A stretch of 64,000 nucleotides of DNA from a virus. Below the pieces are notes generated by a model that worked only from the letters and a program-made list of their open reading frames with translations, searched no databases and was not told the origin of the DNA. The position numbers and the translations under genes are program-made. The stretch lies in IMG/VR virus record IMGVR_UViG_3300014202_001065; one strand, 5' to 3'. This document shows, piece by piece, positions 3,007 to 13,477 of this stretch (positions are counted from its first letter, which is position 1; each line of letters starts with the position of its first letter).

Positions 3007-3732
3007 CTATTTACCTATGTCGCCCAGGTCGCCGAGCTCTACGCTATCGAACTGCTGGGGGTTCTCGTCAGGTTCAACCAGCCACATACCTACGCCTGGC
3101 GCCTTCTCGACAGCAGCCATATCCCAGCCGACCCAGACGCTCGGTACGGCTGATCCGCTGGACCCGGCAGGCCCGCGCCCGATACCCTTGCCCTCCTCGT
3201 TGACCAGATGCTCACGGATGTCAGCCGCTGGACGGATCATAGACCGGTTGAAGTCTTCCAGCGTGCGGACGTAGAAGGTCTGGTCTTTGCTTGTGCTCTG
3301 GTACAGGGCCAGGCGCACGCCAAACAGTGATCCAGCACCTTTGGCGAAGCCTTTGGCTATATAACCCCCGCCCTTCTTGACATGAGAGTGGAAGCCCATG
3401 GGCCCTTCACCATTCAGGTCATCGAGCGCCCTGCCCAGGAGAGGGTACTCACCCGGCCCATTGGCCAGTGGTGCCGCTTCTCGCCGCAGGCTATGGATCA
3501 CCACGTAGCCGTCGAACCGGATCTCCACGCAGCCCACAGGCTGGTTGTCCAACAGCACCGGGGTGGCATACTCCTGGCCGCCAGCAGCCAAGGCATCCTG
3601 CATGCGCTGCAGTTGTTTGATAAGGGTGGCCAGGTCCAGGCCTATCAGCTGGCGGGATCCGGCGTCGCCACCAATGGGGTCACCTTCATTGTTCTGCTCG
3701 AGGACTTTGCGCTCATACTCTTCGCGATTCAT
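3007..3732 (-). CDS. Hypothetical protein with a DUF1653-like segment
   Basis: HVKKGGGY...LALYQS...FYVRTLEDF resembles the DUF1653 pattern. Confidence 0.65.
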   Translation of the reverse strand: MNREEYERKVLEQNNEGDPIGGDAGSRQLIGLDLATLIKQLQRMQDALAAGGQEYATPVLLDNQPVGCVEIRFDGYVVIHSLRREAAPLANGPGEYPLLGRALDDLNGEGPMGFHSHVKKGGGYIAKGFAKGAGSLFGVRLALYQSTSKDQTFYVRTLEDFNRSMIRPAADIREHLVNEEGKGIGRGPAGSSGSAVPSVWVGWDMAAVEKAPGVGMWLVEPDENPQQFDSVELGDLGDIGK

Positions 3733-3743
3733 AGGACCATCCT

Positions 3744-4187
3744 TCAGTAGGTTTTTTCAGAGGTCAGGTCGTTGACATGATCCCAGCGGGCCCGTTCCAA
3801 TACGTTCAGCTCGAAGACCGGTTTGTCCACGAGCACGGTATCGTACTTGAGCAGGGCGCCTTCGTATTCGGTCAGCAGGTGGCGGGCATGCGAGACTCGG
3901 TGCTGCAGCAGCTCGCGGTAGAACGCAACAGCCTTGTGCTCGTCAGCGAAAAGCCAGCAGCTGCCCTTGCCATGCCAGTGGTAGTCCTGCCAGCGCACTG
4001 GGGTAGTGCCTCGCTTATTGATGGCCGCCACCTGAATAAAGCCATGCTCGGTGATCTTGGTGACCATGATGGGTTTGAGCTGGACCTCAGCCAGTGGACG
4101 AGTTTGGCCAGGGTCATAGACTATGAACATGACTTTGGCCCTGTCGAATATTTCGGGGGCCGGTCTTTGGTAGTGTTCAGATATCAC
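3744..4187 (-). CDS. Hypothetical protein
   Basis: GTG start with SD AGGAGG; 147 aa. Confidence 0.7.
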   Translation of the reverse strand: MISEHYQRPAPEIFDRAKVMFIVYDPGQTRPLAEVQLKPIMVTKITEHGFIQVAAINKRGTTPVRWQDYHWHGKGSCWLFADEHKAVAFYRELLQHRVSHARHLLTEYEGALLKYDTVLVDKPVFELNVLERARWDHVNDLTSEKTY

Positions 4188-6043: not shown

Positions 6044-6114
6044 GTATTTATTGTGGTTTATACTCAGCAGGGCCCCCCCTTTTTAACATCAAGCAGCGCG
6101 AGCAGAGGTGACCC

Positions 6115-6456
6115 ATGTCCCAGTATTACAACACCGTCGGACCAAAAATTTATGAGTTTGCCACTGACCCCAGTTTCAGCATTGCTGCGATCCCAGACTT
6201 CCCGCACACATTCCTTGGCGTGATACCCTGCGATGCCGACGGTGACTACGTAGCTGCTGGTGCAGGATCAGTGGCCCTTCAGGTGGAAACTGTAAACTGC
6301 CCTGGTGTGCAGCAGCTCCCGGCTGAGAACACGATCAATCTGGTGGAGCCGACTGATGTGTCCTTTGGCGGCAATCTGATTGCCATTCACGGGATCGTGA
6401 CGGGTTTGACCGTGGCCACCCATTACAGGGTTCACGTTTCACAAAACGTAGCCTAA
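6115..6456 (+). CDS. Hypothetical beta-rich protein (possibly virion-associated)
   Basis: SD GAGGTG; composition is rich in G, A, V, T and N with a beta-strand pattern. Confidence 0.7.
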   Translation: MSQYYNTVGPKIYEFATDPSFSIAAIPDFPHTFLGVIPCDADGDYVAAGAGSVALQVETVNCPGVQQLPAENTINLVEPTDVSFGGNLIAIHGIVTGLTVATHYRVHVSQNVA

Positions 6457-6473
6457 GGTTGTGGAGGTTTATC

Positions 6474-6995
6474 ATGGTCGGATCTGCCTATGCTCAGAGT
6501 ACGATACAGCCTTACACGCCAGATGTGGGCACCCAGATACGGCGAATGGCCCAGGTGTCCAATGCCGCCAACAGTACCGTTACAGTGGGTGGCACCCCTT
6601 CAGTGTTGCCGTTGAATGCCGATGGTGCCAATAACAAGGCGTATAACAACCCCTCTGGTTTTGGCTCTGTTGACCTGACTAATAACTGGTTTGATATACG
6701 GTTTCTGCACCTCCGAGCCGATATGCGTTTCCGGGTTACGGTGGGCAACAATGCGGGGGCCGGCCAGATAAACGGGGCCAATATCATCGTAAGGCTGATA
6801 CCCGACGTGGGGAACCCGGGGGTTTATATCGATGCGCCAAGCTCTGATGTGAACTTCAAAGGCCAGGCCCAGTTTCAAGTAAACGCTTATGCCGATGGTG
6901 TTGAGGCTGTGCAGATTTGCACCCAGACAGCGAATGCCCAAGATATCCGGACATACGGGATCTACATGTCTGTTGACGATATGGTGAATTTATAA
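6474..6995 (+). CDS. Hypothetical beta-rich protein (possibly virion-associated)
   Basis: ATG 6474 with SD GGAGG; followed by a terminator. Confidence 0.7.
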   Translation: MVGSAYAQSTIQPYTPDVGTQIRRMAQVSNAANSTVTVGGTPSVLPLNADGANNKAYNNPSGFGSVDLTNNWFDIRFLHLRADMRFRVTVGNNAGAGQINGANIIVRLIPDVGNPGVYIDAPSSDVNFKGQAQFQVNAYADGVEAVQICTQTANAQDIRTYGIYMSVDDMVNL

Positions 6996-7000
6996 ACCAG

Positions 7001-7020
7001 AGGCCCTTCGGGGCCTTTTC
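7001..7020 (+). terminator. Rho-independent terminator
   Basis: AGGCCC-TTCG-GGGCCT-TTTC. Confidence 0.75.
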
Positions 7021-7026
7021 TCTTTC

Positions 7027-7069
7027 TGGGATCTCCTTCACAGAAAATCGGGGCCGCGGCTGGTACAGT
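7027..7069 (+). promoter_or_regulatory. Class II CRP-like promoter
   Basis: TGGGA-TCTCCT-TCACA at 7027-7042, 21-nt gap, TG-G-TACAGT at 7061-7069. Confidence 0.7.
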
Positions 7070-7099
7070 TCGTTCATCATCTGAAAGGGGAAAAAGACC

Positions 7100-8176
7100 A
7101 TGTGCATTGACAGTCAAGGGCATGTGCTGGGTAAAGGCGACGCCGTAACTCTTACAGCCGACTATATAGCCGCAAACCCTATGCTCACCAGCAGCGGTGT
7201 TCATGACCTTGTGTGGTTTGAGATCAGCGGTATAACCAACCATTCTGAGTGCGTGCTGGTTGCCGCCAGCCCTGCGTCTGCACAGGCCATGTCTTCTACA
7301 GGCTTAATCAGCATCACTGTGGACGCAAAGATGACGACGTACAGCCCAACGGGTTCTGCCTGGTTGGCTTCGACTAAAAGCCAAACTGCGAGCACCGCTC
7401 CTCAGATTTTGTCAGCCAACCAGTATCCGCTACGGAGCGGTGACATCGTACAATTAACCGGCAAATCTTTGCATAGTTGGGGGACCTACAACAATATCAA
7501 GGCCGGCGACGAGTTTGTTTGTACGCTGACAGGTTTGAATCACCCTTCTGGGTGCGAGCTTTGGCTGGATGCCATTGATGCAACTCTCGCTGCCAGCCTG
7601 AATACTAACGGGGTAGTCCCGCTTTATTGCGATGCACGCGAAGTTAATTTTGTACGAAAGGGTGCATTGTCGATGGCGCTGCAGAGAGCACAGCCTGCAC
7701 CGCCTCCGCCTCCGCCTCCGGTACCCGTACCGCCTAAAGCTGTGCTTAGCCAGCAGCCAGGCATCCTGCATCAGGATTATGCTGGTGACAACATCGTGGC
7801 CGGCGATATTGTCACATTGATACCCACCGCCTACAGCTACTTCGGGTTGCAGGCCCCGGTGCAGCCCAACTCTGAATACCGGATCAGGGCCATTGATCAG
7901 TACGGGTTGGTAGAGCTGGAGGCCGTAGACCTTGCAGTGGACGCCGAAGTTTATATACAGCTGGGGCGGCATTTAATTTTTACCCAGACTGGGGGCGTGC
8001 TATTGGCGGCCACGCAGCCTGTGCGTAGTCTGGCTACCCCGTATCAACCGGTGCTGGCCCCACCGCCGGAGCCGGAAACCGGCGAGAAGAAGACTTTTGA
8101 TCACGCCTCGCTGGGTACTGACCTGACAGGGGATGAATTGATGGAATCCATCCGCGCTATCTGCGGCGGCCGCTGA
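7100..8176 (+). CDS. Hypothetical protein with three GD-x-V-x-L repeat domains and a polyproline linker
   Basis: Repeats begin GDAVTL, GDIVQL and GDIVTL; PAPPPPPPPVPVPP linker. Confidence 0.8.
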   Translation: MCIDSQGHVLGKGDAVTLTADYIAANPMLTSSGVHDLVWFEISGITNHSECVLVAASPASAQAMSSTGLISITVDAKMTTYSPTGSAWLASTKSQTASTAPQILSANQYPLRSGDIVQLTGKSLHSWGTYNNIKAGDEFVCTLTGLNHPSGCELWLDAIDATLAASLNTNGVVPLYCDAREVNFVRKGALSMALQRAQPAPPPPPPPVPVPPKAVLSQQPGILHQDYAGDNIVAGDIVTLIPTAYSYFGLQAPVQPNSEYRIRAIDQYGLVELEAVDLAVDAEVYIQLGRHLIFTQTGGVLLAATQPVRSLATPYQPVLAPPPEPETGEKKTFDHASLGTDLTGDELMESIRAICGGR

Positions 8177-8186
8177 GGAGCTGATC

Positions 8187-8702
8187 ATGACAATGAACCG
8201 CGAGGAGGCCCTGGCCTTCATCACCAAAGTCCTGCCTGTATGGCCTGACGATCTGAGTACCGCCGCGCTGCTGGGCAAGCAGTGCCAGACCACTGGTTGG
8301 TATTTTTCCAGTGACCATAACGGGGATCTGGTCTACAAACAACAACGGGTAGAGAACAGGCGGGGTCTGCCGCTGCCTATCAGCAAGGCCGATTGGTTGA
8401 AGCATACAGCCGAGGTGTATGGCCCTGGTAACGATGGCGAGGTAGAGGGTGACGGGGATTTCGCTGCCATAAACCGGGGAGCCTTGCAGGAAAAGGGTGA
8501 TGGCGAGGAACATCCAGATCAGTTGTTGATCACCGCTGTGGAAGAGGTCTGCAGTGCCAGCCACACCTTCGCCCGCGCAGGGGAGAACCACCCTATGGAT
8601 GAGGACGGGGAGTGGATGTGTCCGCACTGCATGGCACGGGCGCTGTCCCGCATTTATGGGGCGCTGGATGACTATGCCAACGGGGTAGGTGATCCATCAT
8701 GA
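8187..8702 (+). CDS. Hypothetical protein
   Basis: SD GAGGAG; H...CPHC motif near the C-terminus. Confidence 0.7.
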   Translation: MTMNREEALAFITKVLPVWPDDLSTAALLGKQCQTTGWYFSSDHNGDLVYKQQRVENRRGLPLPISKADWLKHTAEVYGPGNDGEVEGDGDFAAINRGALQEKGDGEEHPDQLLITAVEEVCSASHTFARAGENHPMDEDGEWMCPHCMARALSRIYGALDDYANGVGDPS

Positions 8703-9067
8703 GGGATAAAAAGCATCTGTTGCATCTGATCATGATGGGTGTCTACTTCGGGTTCAGCGACGAGAGCATTATCGAATTCTTACAGGAGTTTGACGTCTGC
8801 TGTGCGCCTGGGTTTGATAGGCATTCACGCGACCAGCGGGGTATGCACGGCCTGATTGTGTCAAGGTCTGAGTTCGAAACACAAACCCTGGCTCAGATCG
8901 TGAACGGCATAAACCTGCGACGCTTCTGCTCAACCCCATGGCCTAATCAGCCGGTTGAGGCAGTGTGGAAGGATGAGGTGTCTGAGTTGATGCGCACCAG
9001 ACTTGATTTTAGAAACAGGGTAAGGCGCCTGTTCAATGCTTACCCTAGGGAGGGGCTTCATGGGTGA
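8699..9067 (+). CDS. Hypothetical protein
   Basis: ATGA overlap with the previous gene; extended SD AGGTGATCCA. Confidence 0.7.
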   Translation: MRDKKHLLHLIMMGVYFGFSDESIIEFLQEFDVCCAPGFDRHSRDQRGMHGLIVSRSEFETQTLAQIVNGINLRRFCSTPWPNQPVEAVWKDEVSELMRTRLDFRNRVRRLFNAYPREGLHG

Positions 9068-9221
9068 CGTCATCCCGTTAAAGAAACGTGATCAGTCTCG
9101 CAGACCTGCAGGGCCAAGTAAGCCATACTGCATTCACTGGGTCGTGAAGATATACAAGAGTCAGTGGATGCCCTGGCCTGAACCTAAACTGGAGAATACT
9201 GATCATGAGCCGCAATCGTAA
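9060..9221 (+). CDS. Small hypothetical protein
   Basis: ATG 9060 (MGDVIPLKK) with SD GGAGGG; overlaps both neighbours. Confidence 0.5.
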   Translation: MGDVIPLKKRDQSRRPAGPSKPYCIHWVVKIYKSQWMPWPEPKLENTDHEPQS

Positions 9222-9570
9222 GCACAAGATGACCATGAAGATCAAAGGCGTCCTCAAGCGTCTGTTTAAGCGTCAGCGATTTTTCGAGGCCTATGGCGGC
9301 GGCGATTTCATGTTTCTCAAGTGCCGCAAGCCCGGGCTCAACACTCTTTGTTGCGATATAGAAGCGACGCGGACCGTAACTGGGCGCTTCCGCCTCTCCC
9401 AGCCGCCCATCCATGAGTTCCCCAGGGGGTCACAGCCTGACCGTAATTACCCTGTGCAAAGCATGGCCGTTGAGCAGTACAACTACGCGGACCTGGAAAA
9501 GCGGATAGCCGCCATGTTAGGCTGCGAGGTAAGCGAGATTGGTCAGTCGGTCTTTATCGATCGGGGGTAA
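9205..9570 (+). CDS. Hypothetical protein
   Basis: SD GGAG; basic N-terminus; 121 aa. Confidence 0.7.
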   Translation: MSRNRKHKMTMKIKGVLKRLFKRQRFFEAYGGGDFMFLKCRKPGLNTLCCDIEATRTVTGRFRLSQPPIHEFPRGSQPDRNYPVQSMAVEQYNYADLEKRIAAMLGCEVSEIGQSVFIDRG

Positions 9571-9571
9571 C

Positions 9572-9705
9572 ATGAAAAAAAAGCCGTAGCCCTTGTGGTG
9601 CAGCTTGAGCTGTACCGCAGGGCCAAAGCCGAGCAGGAGGCCAACGCTAAGCGGGAACGAGCACACCGCCGTATCCTTGAGCACGCCAAGAAGCTCGACT
9701 GGTAA
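9572..9705 (+). pseudogene. Small ORF (~43 aa, ends ILEHAKKLDW) interrupted at an A8 tract
   Basis: ATG AAA AAA AAG CCG TAG stops at once. The -1 frame continues AVALVVQLELYRRAKAEQEANAKRERAHRRILEHAKKLDW. Confidence 0.55.
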
Positions 9706-9882
9706 CAGAATCTCTACCAGCAGGAGGTGATCCAACCCACAAGTGCCCGGGTGTGTTGTCCCCCCAAGAGGCTCAGGTATCTCGGTACCGCCATCGTCAG
9801 GCGGCCGGCAACCAGAACCGTGATGGTCAAGGTAGCCCCATTTCAAGACCCCAGCGAGACCTTGATTACGCTGGGGTTTTTT
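9706..9882 (+). ncRNA. Candidate small RNA carrying a 16-nt complement of the 16S rRNA 3' end
   Basis: AGGAGGTGATCCAACC at 9722-9737, short hairpins (CCGCC/GGCGG) and a 3' terminator. Confidence 0.4.
9848..9882 (+). terminator. Rho-independent terminator
   Basis: ACCCCAGCG-N12-CGCTGGGGT followed by a T run. Confidence 0.7.
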
Positions 9883-9937
9883 ACGAGTATACTGGCAGCC
9901 TGTGTTTTCAATTCGCGGTGTGTGTGGGGGGGGTGTC

Positions 9938-10693
9938 ATGGGTGTTGGACCGGCTTACGGTGTTCCTAGCGGTGGTGGATCCGGTATTACGGACGGTGAC
10001 AAGGGTGATATAACCGTATCGGGTGGTGGCTCCTCGTGGACTCTCGATGATAAAACAGTAACTAATGCTAAATTGGCTGACGTCACAACAGGTGTGTTAA
10101 AGGGTCGCCATAGTGATGGGGCAGGGGCGGTGGAGGATCTCACGCCAGAGCAGGCAACCTCTATGTTGTTGACCTTCACAGATACATTGAAAGGGCTTAC
10201 GCCGCCACCCGTGGATGTGAGCGGGTTTTTTCTTCGTGATGATGGTTCGTGGGTGGATCCTATACCTGCATCAATAGATATTTGTCTTTCTGCCGTGGAT
10301 GCTACTGGACAGACTTTTACCTTTGCAGCCGCTACACCTCGACAACTTACCTTGTTAACAGAAGCAGTTAACCCCGGTTCGCATTATGACACTGCAACAG
10401 GCCGCTACACACCCACAAAGGCTGGTGTCTATGAAGTGAATGGTGTAATTCAAACCCCAACTGTTGCGTCTACAGGTATTGCCTTCATTTATAAAAACGG
10501 AGTATCTGTTGCGGGTGGTACATATATACCGGTTACGCCCACATCGGGTATGAGGGTGGGGGTCACCACGTTGGTTTATATGAATGGGACTACGGATTAC
10601 CTGGAATTGTGGGGTTATAGCTCTGGGGCTGGGACATCCGCCGCAGGTAATGGGGTCTACATTCAGTTTAATGCACGCTTAGTGTCTATATAA
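9938..10693 (+). CDS. Fibre-like protein with a C-terminal C1q-like domain
   Basis: GITDGDKGDITVSGG fibre-shaft motif; YDTATGRYTPTKAGVYEV...YMNGTTDYLELWGY C1q/TNF-like pattern; visibly lower GC. Confidence 0.7.
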   Translation: MGVGPAYGVPSGGGSGITDGDKGDITVSGGGSSWTLDDKTVTNAKLADVTTGVLKGRHSDGAGAVEDLTPEQATSMLLTFTDTLKGLTPPPVDVSGFFLRDDGSWVDPIPASIDICLSAVDATGQTFTFAAATPRQLTLLTEAVNPGSHYDTATGRYTPTKAGVYEVNGVIQTPTVASTGIAFIYKNGVSVAGGTYIPVTPTSGMRVGVTTLVYMNGTTDYLELWGYSSGAGTSAAGNGVYIQFNARLVSI

Positions 10694-10705
10694 GGATTTA
10701 GTCAT

Positions 10706-11337
10706 ATGGCTTATAAAAACCACCGCCTCGCCATTATGGTGGATCTTGATGGATCACTGTGTTGCGGTGCTCAGCGCCTGCACCTGATGCCCCCGCCGGA
10801 GAAACGGGGGACCCTTTGGCCTGGGAGCCATTCCATATGGCTTGCGGAGGCGACACCGAGATAAATGACGTCGCCCGCATGCTCCGCGCACTGCAAGCCG
10901 CCGGTTATCTGTTGGTCTTCATTTCCTACCGATCTGAGAGCACCCGAGCCCTTTCCAAGGCTTGGCTCTGGGATCACGGGTTTGAAGTCGCTGACCAGGA
11001 CTTGGTGCTGCGCCCAGGAGATCGGGGTCAGCCAGCCCATGAGTTCAAGCTGGAGAAGATACGGCAGCTGGAGCAGGAACGGGGCCTCAAGTTTATCTTC
11101 GCCATTGAGGATGACCTGCCGGTCTGCCAGCACCTGCGAGCTCATGACATCCCCTGCTATCAGGTACGGGACTGGAAGAACCCTATGCCCAGTGAGGCGG
11201 TTGAAATGCCCACCTACCACGCGGCGGATAGCGAGGCCCTGTCTAAGCTGGTGTCGTTGGCACAGAATGACTTGACAGAGGGCCGCGTGTTTACGGTCGA
11301 AGAGGCGAAGGATCGCCTGAAACAACGGCGTCAGTGA
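10706..11337 (+). pseudogene. HAD-family (PNK phosphatase-like) phosphatase with a -1 frame break at 10790-10810
   Basis: The ATG 10706 frame carries the DxD motif (VDLDGSLC). The rest (ISYRS, FAIEDD) is in the ORF-track frame starting 10759. Confidence 0.75.
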
Positions 11338-11375
11338 TGATTAACAAGGGGGGCCTCCGGGCCCTCTTCCATTTC

Positions 11376-11418
11376 TGTGATGCACCGCACAGACTGCCGG
11401 TACCCACGGCGGTAAAGT
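11376..11418 (+). promoter_or_regulatory. Class II CRP-like promoter
   Basis: TGTGA-TGCACC-GCACA at 11376-11391, 21-nt gap, TAAAGT at 11413-11418. Confidence 0.7.
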
Positions 11419-11452
11419 CAAACCCATGTTCCACCAATGAGGCACTATCCAT

Positions 11453-11812
11453 ATGGCAGATGATCCGCTCCTGAACCTGCAAGAGCTGGTGACGCTATCC
11501 TACGACGCGCTGCCGGGTCCCTACTTTATCCATGGCAATGCGCTGATGGCCTATGACAAATTCTGCCAACCCCAGATTGTCGCCACGCTGCGCACCGATA
11601 ATGAGGTCTTGGTTGCAACCGCTATGTTTTTGTCGATGATGACGCCGGCCAGCATCCGTGATATTGCCCGGCAGGTGCTGGCCGTGAAGGAGGACACCGC
11701 CCGGCTGGATTACCTCAGCAGGCACGGCAGCTATGAGTTTCGAAACATGATGGGGGAAGGTCTGCGCACTGCGATAGACGCCGCCCGCAAAAAGATCTAC
11801 GACGACGATTAA
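11453..11812 (+). CDS. Hypothetical protein
   Basis: SD GAGG; 119 aa. Confidence 0.75.
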   Translation: MADDPLLNLQELVTLSYDALPGPYFIHGNALMAYDKFCQPQIVATLRTDNEVLVATAMFLSMMTPASIRDIARQVLAVKEDTARLDYLSRHGSYEFRNMMGEGLRTAIDAARKKIYDDD

Positions 11813-11823
11813 GGAGGCCTCCT

Positions 11824-12255
11824 ATGGCTGTTCGTAAAGGTGACTGCAAACATGCGGTAGAGCTTCTCGCCGAGTTCCTCATTGGTAGGGGCTATATCAG
11901 CAAGGACGCCATGATCAAGGCTGGAGCCGCCAAGGTCTGTGGCTATGACGAAAACCGGGACAACCTGGGCAACACCGTGCACAGCGCTCTCAACATGCTG
12001 CGTATCGAAAAGGTGGTAGTCGTTAAGCATGTGCCGGCTACATCAGGATTCCCCAGCCGCCCGCCACACTTGATCTACAAGATCAACCCCGAGCTGGAGG
12101 GTATGGTTTGCGGGCGTGCCATGCGGGAAAAGATGGCGATCCTCAACGCGACCAGTCCGCTTGATAAGGTTCGCAGTGGAGCCGAGAAGCCGAAGGTGGC
12201 CGGCAACTGGGGATCTATATTCGATGCCATGTCCAAGCAGAAACAACTGGCTTGA
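11824..12255 (+). CDS. Hypothetical protein, possible winged-helix DNA-binding protein
   Basis: SD AAGGAGG; helix-helix-helix-beta-hairpin-like pattern (inference). Confidence 0.7.
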   Translation: MAVRKGDCKHAVELLAEFLIGRGYISKDAMIKAGAAKVCGYDENRDNLGNTVHSALNMLRIEKVVVVKHVPATSGFPSRPPHLIYKINPELEGMVCGRAMREKMAILNATSPLDKVRSGAEKPKVAGNWGSIFDAMSKQKQLA

Positions 12256-12325
12256 CAGTATCATTGGGGGCCGTCCAGTAGTAACCTGTTGATCATTGCA
12301 TTGACTTAGGCCACCTGGGGGTTGT

Positions 12326-13477
12326 ATGACAGCGCAGAAAATGACTGACGATCAGTTGAAGCAGTGCATCTTGGATGGCATGACCACTGCCGCCATTGCC
12401 GGTCTTTTCAAGATGCACGAGCGGCGGGTGTGGGACAGACGAGCCATGCTGGCCAGGCAAGGTTGGTCGCCAGAGCACGGCCTGAAGGTCGAGTACCCTG
12501 ATGGGTTCAAGGTGGGGAAGACCACCATTCAGCGCGGCCCCGACGGCACCATTGAGCGCACCTGGGAACGGATGTGCGAAGACCCAGAGAAGTTGCAGGC
12601 CCTGATGCAGCGATCCATGCAAGCGATGGTAGAGGGTCTGCCTAAGTTCAAGGCCCAGCCTCTGGCCGCTCTTGAGGTGGACCACGACCTGCTGGCTGTC
12701 TACCCTCTGGGCGACCCTCACATCGGGATGATGAGTTGGGGGGCAGAAACGGGGCAGGATTGGGATCTCAAGATCGCCGAGCGCTACTTCTGCAAAGCCT
12801 TTGACCGCGTTGTCCGCACCACCCCCCACTGCAAGCAAGCCCTCATTCTGAATCTTGGCGACTTCTTCCACGCAGACAACATGGAAGGTGTCACCACCCG
12901 CAGCAAACACTCACTCGACGTTGACGGCCGCTATGCGAAGATGATCAGTGTCGGCGTCAAGATCATGCGCCAGATGATCGAGACTGCGCTAGAAGTACAC
13001 GATACCGTGCGGGTCATTAACTGCATTGGTAACCACGACGATACCGGTTCCCAGTTTCTGGCCGTGCTGCTGATGCACGTTTACGAGCTGGAGCCGCGGG
13101 TCATCATAGACGTCTCCCCCACACCGTTCCACTACATGCGTTGGGGCAAGGTCCTGCTGGGCGCCCACCATGGGCATACCTGCAAGGCACCCGGGTTGCC
13201 GGCCGTGATGGCTGCCTCTCGGCCAGAAGACTGGGGCGCCACCAATTATCGCTACTGGTACACCGGCCACATCCACCACGACACGCTGAAGGAATACCCA
13301 GGTGTGAAGGTGGAGAGCTTCCGCACCATGGCCGCAGCGGATGCTTACGCCACCTGGGGAGGCTACATTTCAGGGCAGGACATCAAGGCCATCGTCCTGC
13401 ACAAGAACAAGGGCGAGGTGGAGCGCCACACCGTCCATATCGACCACCTCCGGGATGCCAAGGGGTTGCACATATGA
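12326..13477 (+). CDS. Calcineurin-like metallophosphoesterase with an N-terminal HTH-like segment
   Basis: GDPHIG, GDFFH, GNHD, HHGH and GHIHH motifs. Confidence 0.9.
   Translation: MTAQKMTDDQLKQCILDGMTTAAIAGLFKMHERRVWDRRAMLARQGWSPEHGLKVEYPDGFKVGKTTIQRGPDGTIERTWERMCEDPEKLQALMQRSMQAMVEGLPKFKAQPLAALEVDHDLLAVYPLGDPHIGMMSWGAETGQDWDLKIAERYFCKAFDRVVRTTPHCKQALILNLGDFFHADNMEGVTTRSKHSLDVDGRYAKMISVGVKIMRQMIETALEVHDTVRVINCIGNHDDTGSQFLAVLLMHVYELEPRVIIDVSPTPFHYMRWGKVLLGAHHGHTCKAPGLPAVMAASRPEDWGATNYRYWYTGHIHHDTLKEYPGVKVESFRTMAAADAYATWGGYISGQDIKAIVLHKNKGEVERHTVHIDHLRDAKGLHI

Follow-up and report, generated by a model that had tools for sequence, protein, structure and literature searches.

The 177 nt at positions 9706-9882 of the phage genome analysed here very probably form a selected non-coding RNA element, which directly follows the last coding sequence of an apparent early operon and carries near its 5' end a strong SD without a start codon. 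Sequence comparison makes it a conserved structured RNA with a family of three members, new and without an Rfam match, and speaks against its being a primer artefact, a small ORF, or an SD that arose by chance or survives as a relic.

The window, that is, the whole stretch of DNA that was analysed, comprises 64 kb of an 82,147-bp IMG/VR virus record (56% G+C) and encodes portal, tape measure and tail proteins as well as DNA polymerase I and a DnaB-like helicase. The closest cultured kin are the 80-kb Vibrio siphoviruses of the SIO-2/VHS1 type, with which the polymerase shares ~42% protein identity. CRP-like boxes (TGTGA-N6-TCACA, at most 1 mismatch) occur 14 times in the window versus 2.1 times expected from shuffles, for example at 7027, 11376, 23802 and 43799, and the boxes at 7027 and 11376 flank the region of the element. 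Their excess supports a CRP-like regulon in the phage. Given the kinship with Vibrio siphoviruses and this enrichment, the host of this siphovirus is probably a gammaproteobacterium.

Relatives of the locus were found with an exhaustive HMMER search using the 121-aa protein encoded upstream of the element as the query. Two full-length relatives, P0069 (56% identity) and P0070 (52%), led to the syntenic contigs L254 (ENA, 12.5 kb) and L255 (JGI, 3.9 kb). Both derive from metagenomic phages, are syntenic with window positions 6100-13400 and show a ~220-nt gap after a small ORF of 40-48 aa, followed by a variable fibre-like gene. With blastn, 9400-10000 matched none of 50,697 phage records, and searches that started from the exonuclease, the fibre-like protein or the 122-aa protein returned either identical copies or distant phages that do not share the neighbourhood. 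The features of the locus, all on the + strand, are the following:

7100-8176, 8187-8702, 8699-9067 and 9205-9570, +, run of genes ahead of the motif, completed by a small ORF ending with TAA at 9703-9705
9205-9570, +, upstream gene of the same operon, 121 aa, of unknown function; positive codon score, full-length relatives
9572-9705, +, small basic ORF, last coding sequence of the operon; codon score +0.50 per codon
9706-9721, +, linker from the stop codon to the motif; length kept in the three phages (16, 16 and 15 nt), sequence partly conserved
9722-9737, +, start-less super-SD AGGAGGTGATCCAACC; exactly complementary to the 3' tail of E. coli-type 16S
9738-9765, +, variable 5' domain ending in a run of five to six C (9760-9765); RNAalifold helices 1 and 2, without covariation
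9761-9793, +, invariant 33-nt core shared by the three phages; comprises the C-run, AAGAGGCTCAGG and the 5' arm of hairpin Ha
9783-9807, +, hairpin Ha, 3 + 5 bp with a 7-nt loop; stem invariant (helix 4, all 8 pairs kept)
9808-9836, +, hairpin Hb; covariation
9845-9882, +, intrinsic terminator with T6; 8 G/C-rich pairs lengthened by A/U pairs to 12 (helix 7)
9888-9893, +, -10-like hexamer; TATACT in the window, TATAAT in both relatives
9938-10693, +, fibre-like gene downstream of and separate from the RNA, 251 aa; weak C1q-like match

In the small ORF, the ATG at 9572 falls one base out of frame in a run of eight A's (9575-9582). Its frame ends after 5 codons at TAG 9587-9589, and only the stretch from GTG 9595 to 9705 (36 aa) is open. 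Nine A's would give MKKKAVALVVQLELY..., like the ORFs of L254 and L255, which run from ATG, encode 48 and 40 aa, respectively, and keep the C-terminus AKKL(D/K)W. The run of eight represents either a homopolymer error, a real frameshift, in which case the start would be GTG 9595, or a site of transcriptional slippage. The protein is basic and helical, has RRRER/KRERAHRR-like runs and belongs to no family in Pfam or PHROG. On the minus strand, the gene caller used for the JGI contig placed genes at 9184-9414 and 9517-9735 (L159:3283-3513 and 3616-3834), one of which starts inside the 16-mer. These calls are probably wrong: the + strand ORFs 9205-9570 and 9595-9705 score better, and 9205-9570 has full-length relatives.

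Past the element, the counterparts of 9938-10693 encode 565 aa in L254 (5778-7475; faint GDSL-lipase match) and 325 aa in L255 (1381-2358). The N-terminus MG.GP is common to all three proteins and the remainder is variable. The gene is a swappable fibre-like cassette, located in the early region and distant from the tail module. Further upstream, the 122-aa gene at 8699-9067 is missing in L254, which marks it as an insertion. Ahead of it (8687-8701) lies AGGTGATCCA, which complements 10 nt of the 16S tail, is shifted towards helix 45 and is followed 2 nt on by an ATG; it is a second unusually extended 16S match in the same phage, there at a genuine start.

A sequence-only reading of the window had reported a 16-nt complement of the 16S 3' end at 9722-9737 on the + strand, in a gap of ~230 nt. 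We confirmed the exact match and measured the gap from TAA 9703-9705 to ATG 9938 as 232 nt. The motif lies 16 nt past the TAA and about 110 nt ahead of the intrinsic terminator, and the next gene follows 216 nt downstream, beyond the terminator. The complement was said to cover both the anti-SD and the 3' strand of helix 45. The match to an E. coli-type tail holds, whereas full coverage of the helix 45 strand does not: the 16-mer complements 16S nt 1525-1540 in E. coli numbering and spans only 5 of the ~10 nt of that strand. The scoring used the E. coli-type tail in place of the host's own, so that a perfect complement of the host 16S is an inference; if the host had the GGCUGG variant of 16S, the pairing would end at 13 nt.

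AGGAGGTGATCCAACC is the longest 16S complement found in the phage and is present as a single copy in the 82,147-bp virus record. An exact 16-mer is expected ~3e-5 times per 64 kb, and shuffles give 0.7 matches when up to 3 mismatches are allowed, the actual site having 0 mismatches. By our own estimate, chance alone would supply about one orphan AGGAGG with a 10-base matching extension in ~16 Gb (~250,000 windows). This last figure speaks for an explanation that we consider very unlikely overall, namely that the site is an SD that lost its gene and was extended by chance, within a block recently exchanged as a recombination linker. That the downstream gene is a swapped cassette fits the same explanation, as does the fact that IMG/VR contains the exact 16-mer in 27 stretches, the majority of which encode GGDPT.

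These stretches fall into ~17 sequence families, none of which is related to the locus, and 24 of the 28 matches lie inside ORFs of at least 100 codons, many encoding GGDPT. A reversed-sequence control hit 5 stretches versus the 27 of the 16-mer. The CCAGCC variant was found in 87 stretches; most of these are coding and a few are true 16S ends. Most matches of AGGAGGTGATCCAGCC belong to one protein family, present in ~25 IMG/VR contigs (L170-L248), in which it encodes ..YYKGGDPA.TLW.NP.MRG.D with third-position variation. Among the IMG/VR matches of the 16-mer and the CCAGCC variant, no family of orphan sites was seen. Because nearly all of these matches fall in long ORFs, the motif by itself proves nothing, and a widespread phage family of orphan sites appears to be absent from IMG/VR.

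Two other records deserve mention. On the minus strand of L027 (IMGVR_UViG_3300036716_001760), at ~10070-10087, an 18-nt perfect complement, TAAGGAGGTGATCCAACC, overlaps a TAA stop codon in a low-G+C intergenic region and has no start codon at normal spacing; it represents a second orphan site, unrelated in sequence. L006 (IMGVR_UViG_651053022_000007) contains at 2440-2455 and 10478-10493 two E. coli-type rRNA spacer starts with the ~18 last nt of 16S, that is, a 16S tail with an E. coli-type end and spacer. These 16S pieces break off at CCAACCG within the 'viral' contig and could represent either masked rRNA or a prophage or assembly boundary.

A captured 16S fragment was considered as the origin of our motif and rejected. 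The flanks, CAGC before and CACAAG after it, are unlike the true 16S ends in L218, L229 and L006, and the whole virus record contains neither a 16S gene nor a match to the SSU model. The sequence-only reading had raised a primer or chimera artefact as a danger to its proposal. This is excluded by another 84.6-kb JGI contig, which contains the same sequence and is 100% identical over 8.8 kb, and by assemblies of other projects (ENA ERZ27271229 and JGI 3300032144), in which the motif stands in the same conserved context.

The motif is not followed by a usable start. As had been claimed, none is found at normal spacing: neither ATG, GTG or TTG nor a near-cognate codon lies 4-13 nt past AGGAGG in the window, and no start codon occupies this interval in any of the three sequences. 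GTG 9743, located 15 nt past AGGAGG, opens only 26 codons, again in agreement with the sequence-only reading, and these score -0.53 per codon. In both L254 and L255 the position is GCG. In the codon model, which was trained on 20 long genes of the phage, 9205-9570 and 9595-9705 are positive, and all frames between 9706 and 9880 score about zero or below. Furthermore, the three copies are separated by single-base indels, and in the only frame that is open in all of them the changes are non-synonymous and the stop is moved. The one-base indels and the substitution pattern thus point to an element acting at the RNA or DNA level rather than to a peptide. We rejected small-ORF readings in three frames on account of the codon scores, the frame-breaking indels and the loss of GTG 9743 in the relatives. 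The strong SD and a GTG 15 nt away would be what an ordinary start of a small protein offers, at GTG 9743 or in another frame. The spacing is too long for this, however, the GTG is lost, and the indels break every frame; this explanation is already refuted by the comparison, and we regard its probability as close to nil. Programmed bypassing or frameshifting and a tRNA were likewise considered and rejected.

The strongest argument for selection comes from the three phages. From the motif to the terminator, the 177-nt stretch shows 85-91% DNA identity among them, whereas their flanking genes have 55-72% DNA identity and the adjoining protein 52-56% identity. On either side the values are low: 59-64% in the small ORF and 61-64% in the 121-aa gene, 56-73% in the stretch past the terminator and 60-71% where the downstream gene begins; 81-82% is the figure for the best-kept genes of the locus. 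In a sliding identity profile over 7.7 kb the element is the only non-coding peak. The 16-mer is kept beyond AGGAGG in the relatives, a point on which the sequence-only reading had made its proposal depend: all 16 nt are present in L254 (L254:5573-5588), and in L255 (L255:1175-1188) 14 of the 16 are contiguous, AGGAGGTGATCCAA, followed by one inserted A. Conservation of the 16-mer does not exceed that of the remaining element, and it therefore does not single out the 16S match as the target of selection.

At the motif and at the terminator, the invariant blocks end abruptly, and the differences cluster in loops and at compensated positions of the Hb stem. Both features argue against a recent transfer of the block, as does the drop in identity immediately outside it. 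Similarly, a decaying relic would not keep 14-16 nt where proteins are down to 52-56% identity. A covariance model (R1) run over 600 kb of retrieved loci detected only the three members, with one copy per genome. A 20-mer from the 33-nt core is absent from IMG/VR; in JGI metagenomes it occurs only in L255's own contig, and one chance coding match lies in a Gemmatimonadaceae MAG. Rfam 15 returned only three chance-level matches to the element (E at least 0.9), far below gathering scores.

RNAalifold and pair counting on the three aligned sequences divide the element into a variable 5' domain, the hairpins Ha and Hb, and a terminator, which bears out the short hairpins and the terminal terminator of the sequence-only reading. 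The 5' domain folds differently in each of the three sequences. Its C-run at 9760-9765 can pair weakly with GGAGG, for which the predicted unpaired probability is 0.16-0.21. In Ha the stem is invariant, and in Hb three pairs are changed on both sides in L254 (CG to UA, AU to GC and CG to UA) with none broken; ~ten substitutions within 29 nt leave every pair intact. In the controls, slid partners gave 0 and 22 of 500 shuffles reached the score of Hb; with three sequences compared and all covariation coming from one lineage, the power is limited. The T-run and the G-U pairs agree with the + strand.

The terminator stem is formed by CCCCAGCG (9849-9856) with CGCTGGGG (9869-9876), extended by A/U pairs from 9845 and followed by T6 at 9877-9882. 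It is near-identical in the three sequences, is preceded by the conserved A/U-rich single strand UUUCAAGA, and was overlooked by a consensus scanner because its loop measures 12 nt. This loop is conserved and contains TTGATT. The hexamer at 9888-9893 is a candidate promoter element that may serve the variable downstream gene; its -35 candidates are weak (ATTACG, 3/6 at 17-nt spacing; TTGATT 20 nt away). The conserved loop and the TATAAT that follows may form an overlapping terminator-promoter pair.

With a conserved RNA and a terminator placed between the early operon and further + strand genes, a cis-acting regulated terminator, nut-like or an attenuator, would gate polymerase into the fibre-like and phosphatase genes, perhaps with participation of the small arginine/lysine-rich protein, the SD-like stretch being a structural or protein-binding strand. 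For the genes past the terminator, the first CRP-like box of their own is the one at 11376, the basic runs of the small ORF recall arginine-rich RNA-binding motifs, and Ha has a 5-bp stem. We nevertheless judge this improbable. No conserved anti-terminator pairing was found, and the terminator folds independently in 3/3 sequences; no boxA was seen, and the 7-nt loop of Ha is unlike boxB. The small protein, moreover, has no Pfam or PHROG family and is frameshifted at the ATG in the window, and the next gene may have a promoter of its own in the conserved TATAAT/TATACT past the terminator. Of a lambda-type N/nut system, neither boxA, a boxB-like loop nor a family match of the small ORF to an N protein was seen.

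No conserved sigma-70 promoter was found ahead of the element, including within the small ORF. The simplest reading is therefore that the element forms the 3' untranslated end of a presumed transcript of the early + strand operon, and it may be freed by processing in the partly conserved linker. As we picture it, the RNA would present in order the start-less super-SD 15-16 nt past the stop, the invariant 33-nt core, the two hairpins and the terminator. A 30S subunit, either fresh or just released at the stop codon, would pair its anti-SD tail with the motif; lacking a start codon, it could not initiate and would stay parked. The parked 30S would then either shield and stabilise the RNA or its transcript in the manner of STAB-SD or be withheld from other use. 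Of the mechanisms considered, such docking is the most likely, at about even odds in our assessment.

The energetics permit it. The predicted duplex with the E. coli-type 16S tail amounts to -20.2 kcal/mol for a 13-nt tail and -32 kcal/mol for 18 nt, and opening the local fold to free the 16-mer would cost 5.5-9.8 kcal/mol, far below the duplex energy. Among the phage transcripts none has at least 13 nt of complementarity to any part of the element, the best reaching 12 nt, which is chance level; the 16S tail is therefore the only strong partner in sight. Stabilisation of RNA by a strong SD without translation has been described for STAB-SD (PMC4113751) and for phage SP82, ompA and lacZ (PMC7509114). 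Against docking as a stabiliser stands the position of the site past the last ORF and ahead of a terminator, where it would protect little coding RNA. As the other ~160 nt are equally conserved, the RNA must do more than present an SD.

Pairing past the single-stranded tail requires that the base of helix 45 be opened, and on ribosomes of the E. coli type bS21 reportedly impedes an extended SD pairing (PMC13009471). Both points disfavour a simple global ribosome sponge, as do the ordinary SDs of the phage's own genes (median -8.3 kcal/mol) and the mostly paired state of GGAGG. Of the original proposal, an orphan, terminator-bounded RNA with an extended anti-SD complement is thus retained, and a plain sponge for 30S is not favoured. 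All three roles named there, a decoy for 30S, a stabiliser that binds ribosomes and an antisense RNA affecting 16S maturation, are candidates as far as the sequence goes. A more specific version, which we think rather unlikely, would have an abundant, terminator-ended RNA act in trans, using the 11-nt single-stranded 16S tail as a toehold, proceeding 3-5 bases into the 3' strand of helix 45 and thereby locking or disabling the 30S. Its targets would be 30S subunits, or immature 30S lacking bS21, and the outcome a '6S-RNA-like' retuning of translation during infection.

An Hfq-type sRNA, cut from the 3' UTR of the operon and acting in trans by pairing with host mRNAs or sponging host sRNAs, is a possibility to which we assign a limited share. 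Its single strands, the purine-rich 5' segment or the 33-nt core, would meet CU-rich, anti-SD-like seeds, and the 16S match would be a by-product of ribosome-binding-site mimicry. Prophage anti-sRNAs that mimic mRNA targets exist, such as AgvB and AsxR. The position directly after a stop codon, the terminator with its U-tail behind a conserved A/U-rich strand and the lack of an own conserved sigma-70 promoter upstream agree with this explanation, and the invariant 33-nt core, which has no stable conserved fold, suggests a sequence-specific partner. Yet the U-tail has just 6 U, the phage offers no target of at least 13 nt, and a by-product is unlikely to match 16S perfectly over 14-16 nt, 5-7 nt past an ordinary SD.

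Orphan SDs are usually dismissed as relics. Here one stands at the head of the non-coding block that is best conserved in the locus and that persists in phages with proteins down to ~50% identity, and the element offers a concrete, cloneable candidate RNA for holding 30S without translation. Since the 16-mer is an exact match to the 16S tail of E. coli, binding, helix-45 invasion, stabilisation and toxicity are all testable in E. coli. Should the RNA act in trans, it would represent a new phage route to manipulating translation; action in cis would carry the STAB-SD principle over to Gram-negative phages as well as to 3' ends.

Several known systems share parts of this design. 6S RNA mimics open promoter DNA and sequesters RNA polymerase; the likeness is conceptual only, an RNA imitating the substrate of a core machine unproductively, and machine, fold and sequence are all different. 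The enterobacterial sRNAs CpxQ and SroC are Hfq-dependent and derived from 3' UTRs. Like them, the element follows a stop codon, uses the mRNA's own terminator with an A/U-rich stretch before it and has a conserved segment at its presumed 5' end. The known seeds of 3' UTR sRNAs target mRNAs and tend to be pyrimidine-rich or of mixed composition, and none is known that is a long perfect complement of the 16S tail.

The nearest parallels come from Bacillota, namely the STAB-SD of the Bacillus thuringiensis cry3A mRNA (Agaisse & Lereclus 1996; Mathy et al. 2007; reviewed in PMC4113751), together with the polypurine 5' stabiliser of phage SP82 (Hue et al. 1995, PMC177050). As in these, a complement of the 16S 3' end lies far from any real start and does not serve initiation, and STAB-SD is thought to hold a 30S. 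STAB-SD is short, precedes the gene that it protects, lies close to the 5' end of the processed mRNA and blocks the 5'-3' exonuclease RNase J1 of Bacillota. The complement in our element, in contrast, measures 14-16 nt and reaches into helix 45, and it stands past the last ORF at the head of a 177-nt structured RNA. Its host probably lacks RNase J, an enzyme that the hosts of Vibrio phages are not known to have. Taken as a start-less docking site for 30S, the element is closest to STAB-SD, yet it is located at the 3' end of an operon.
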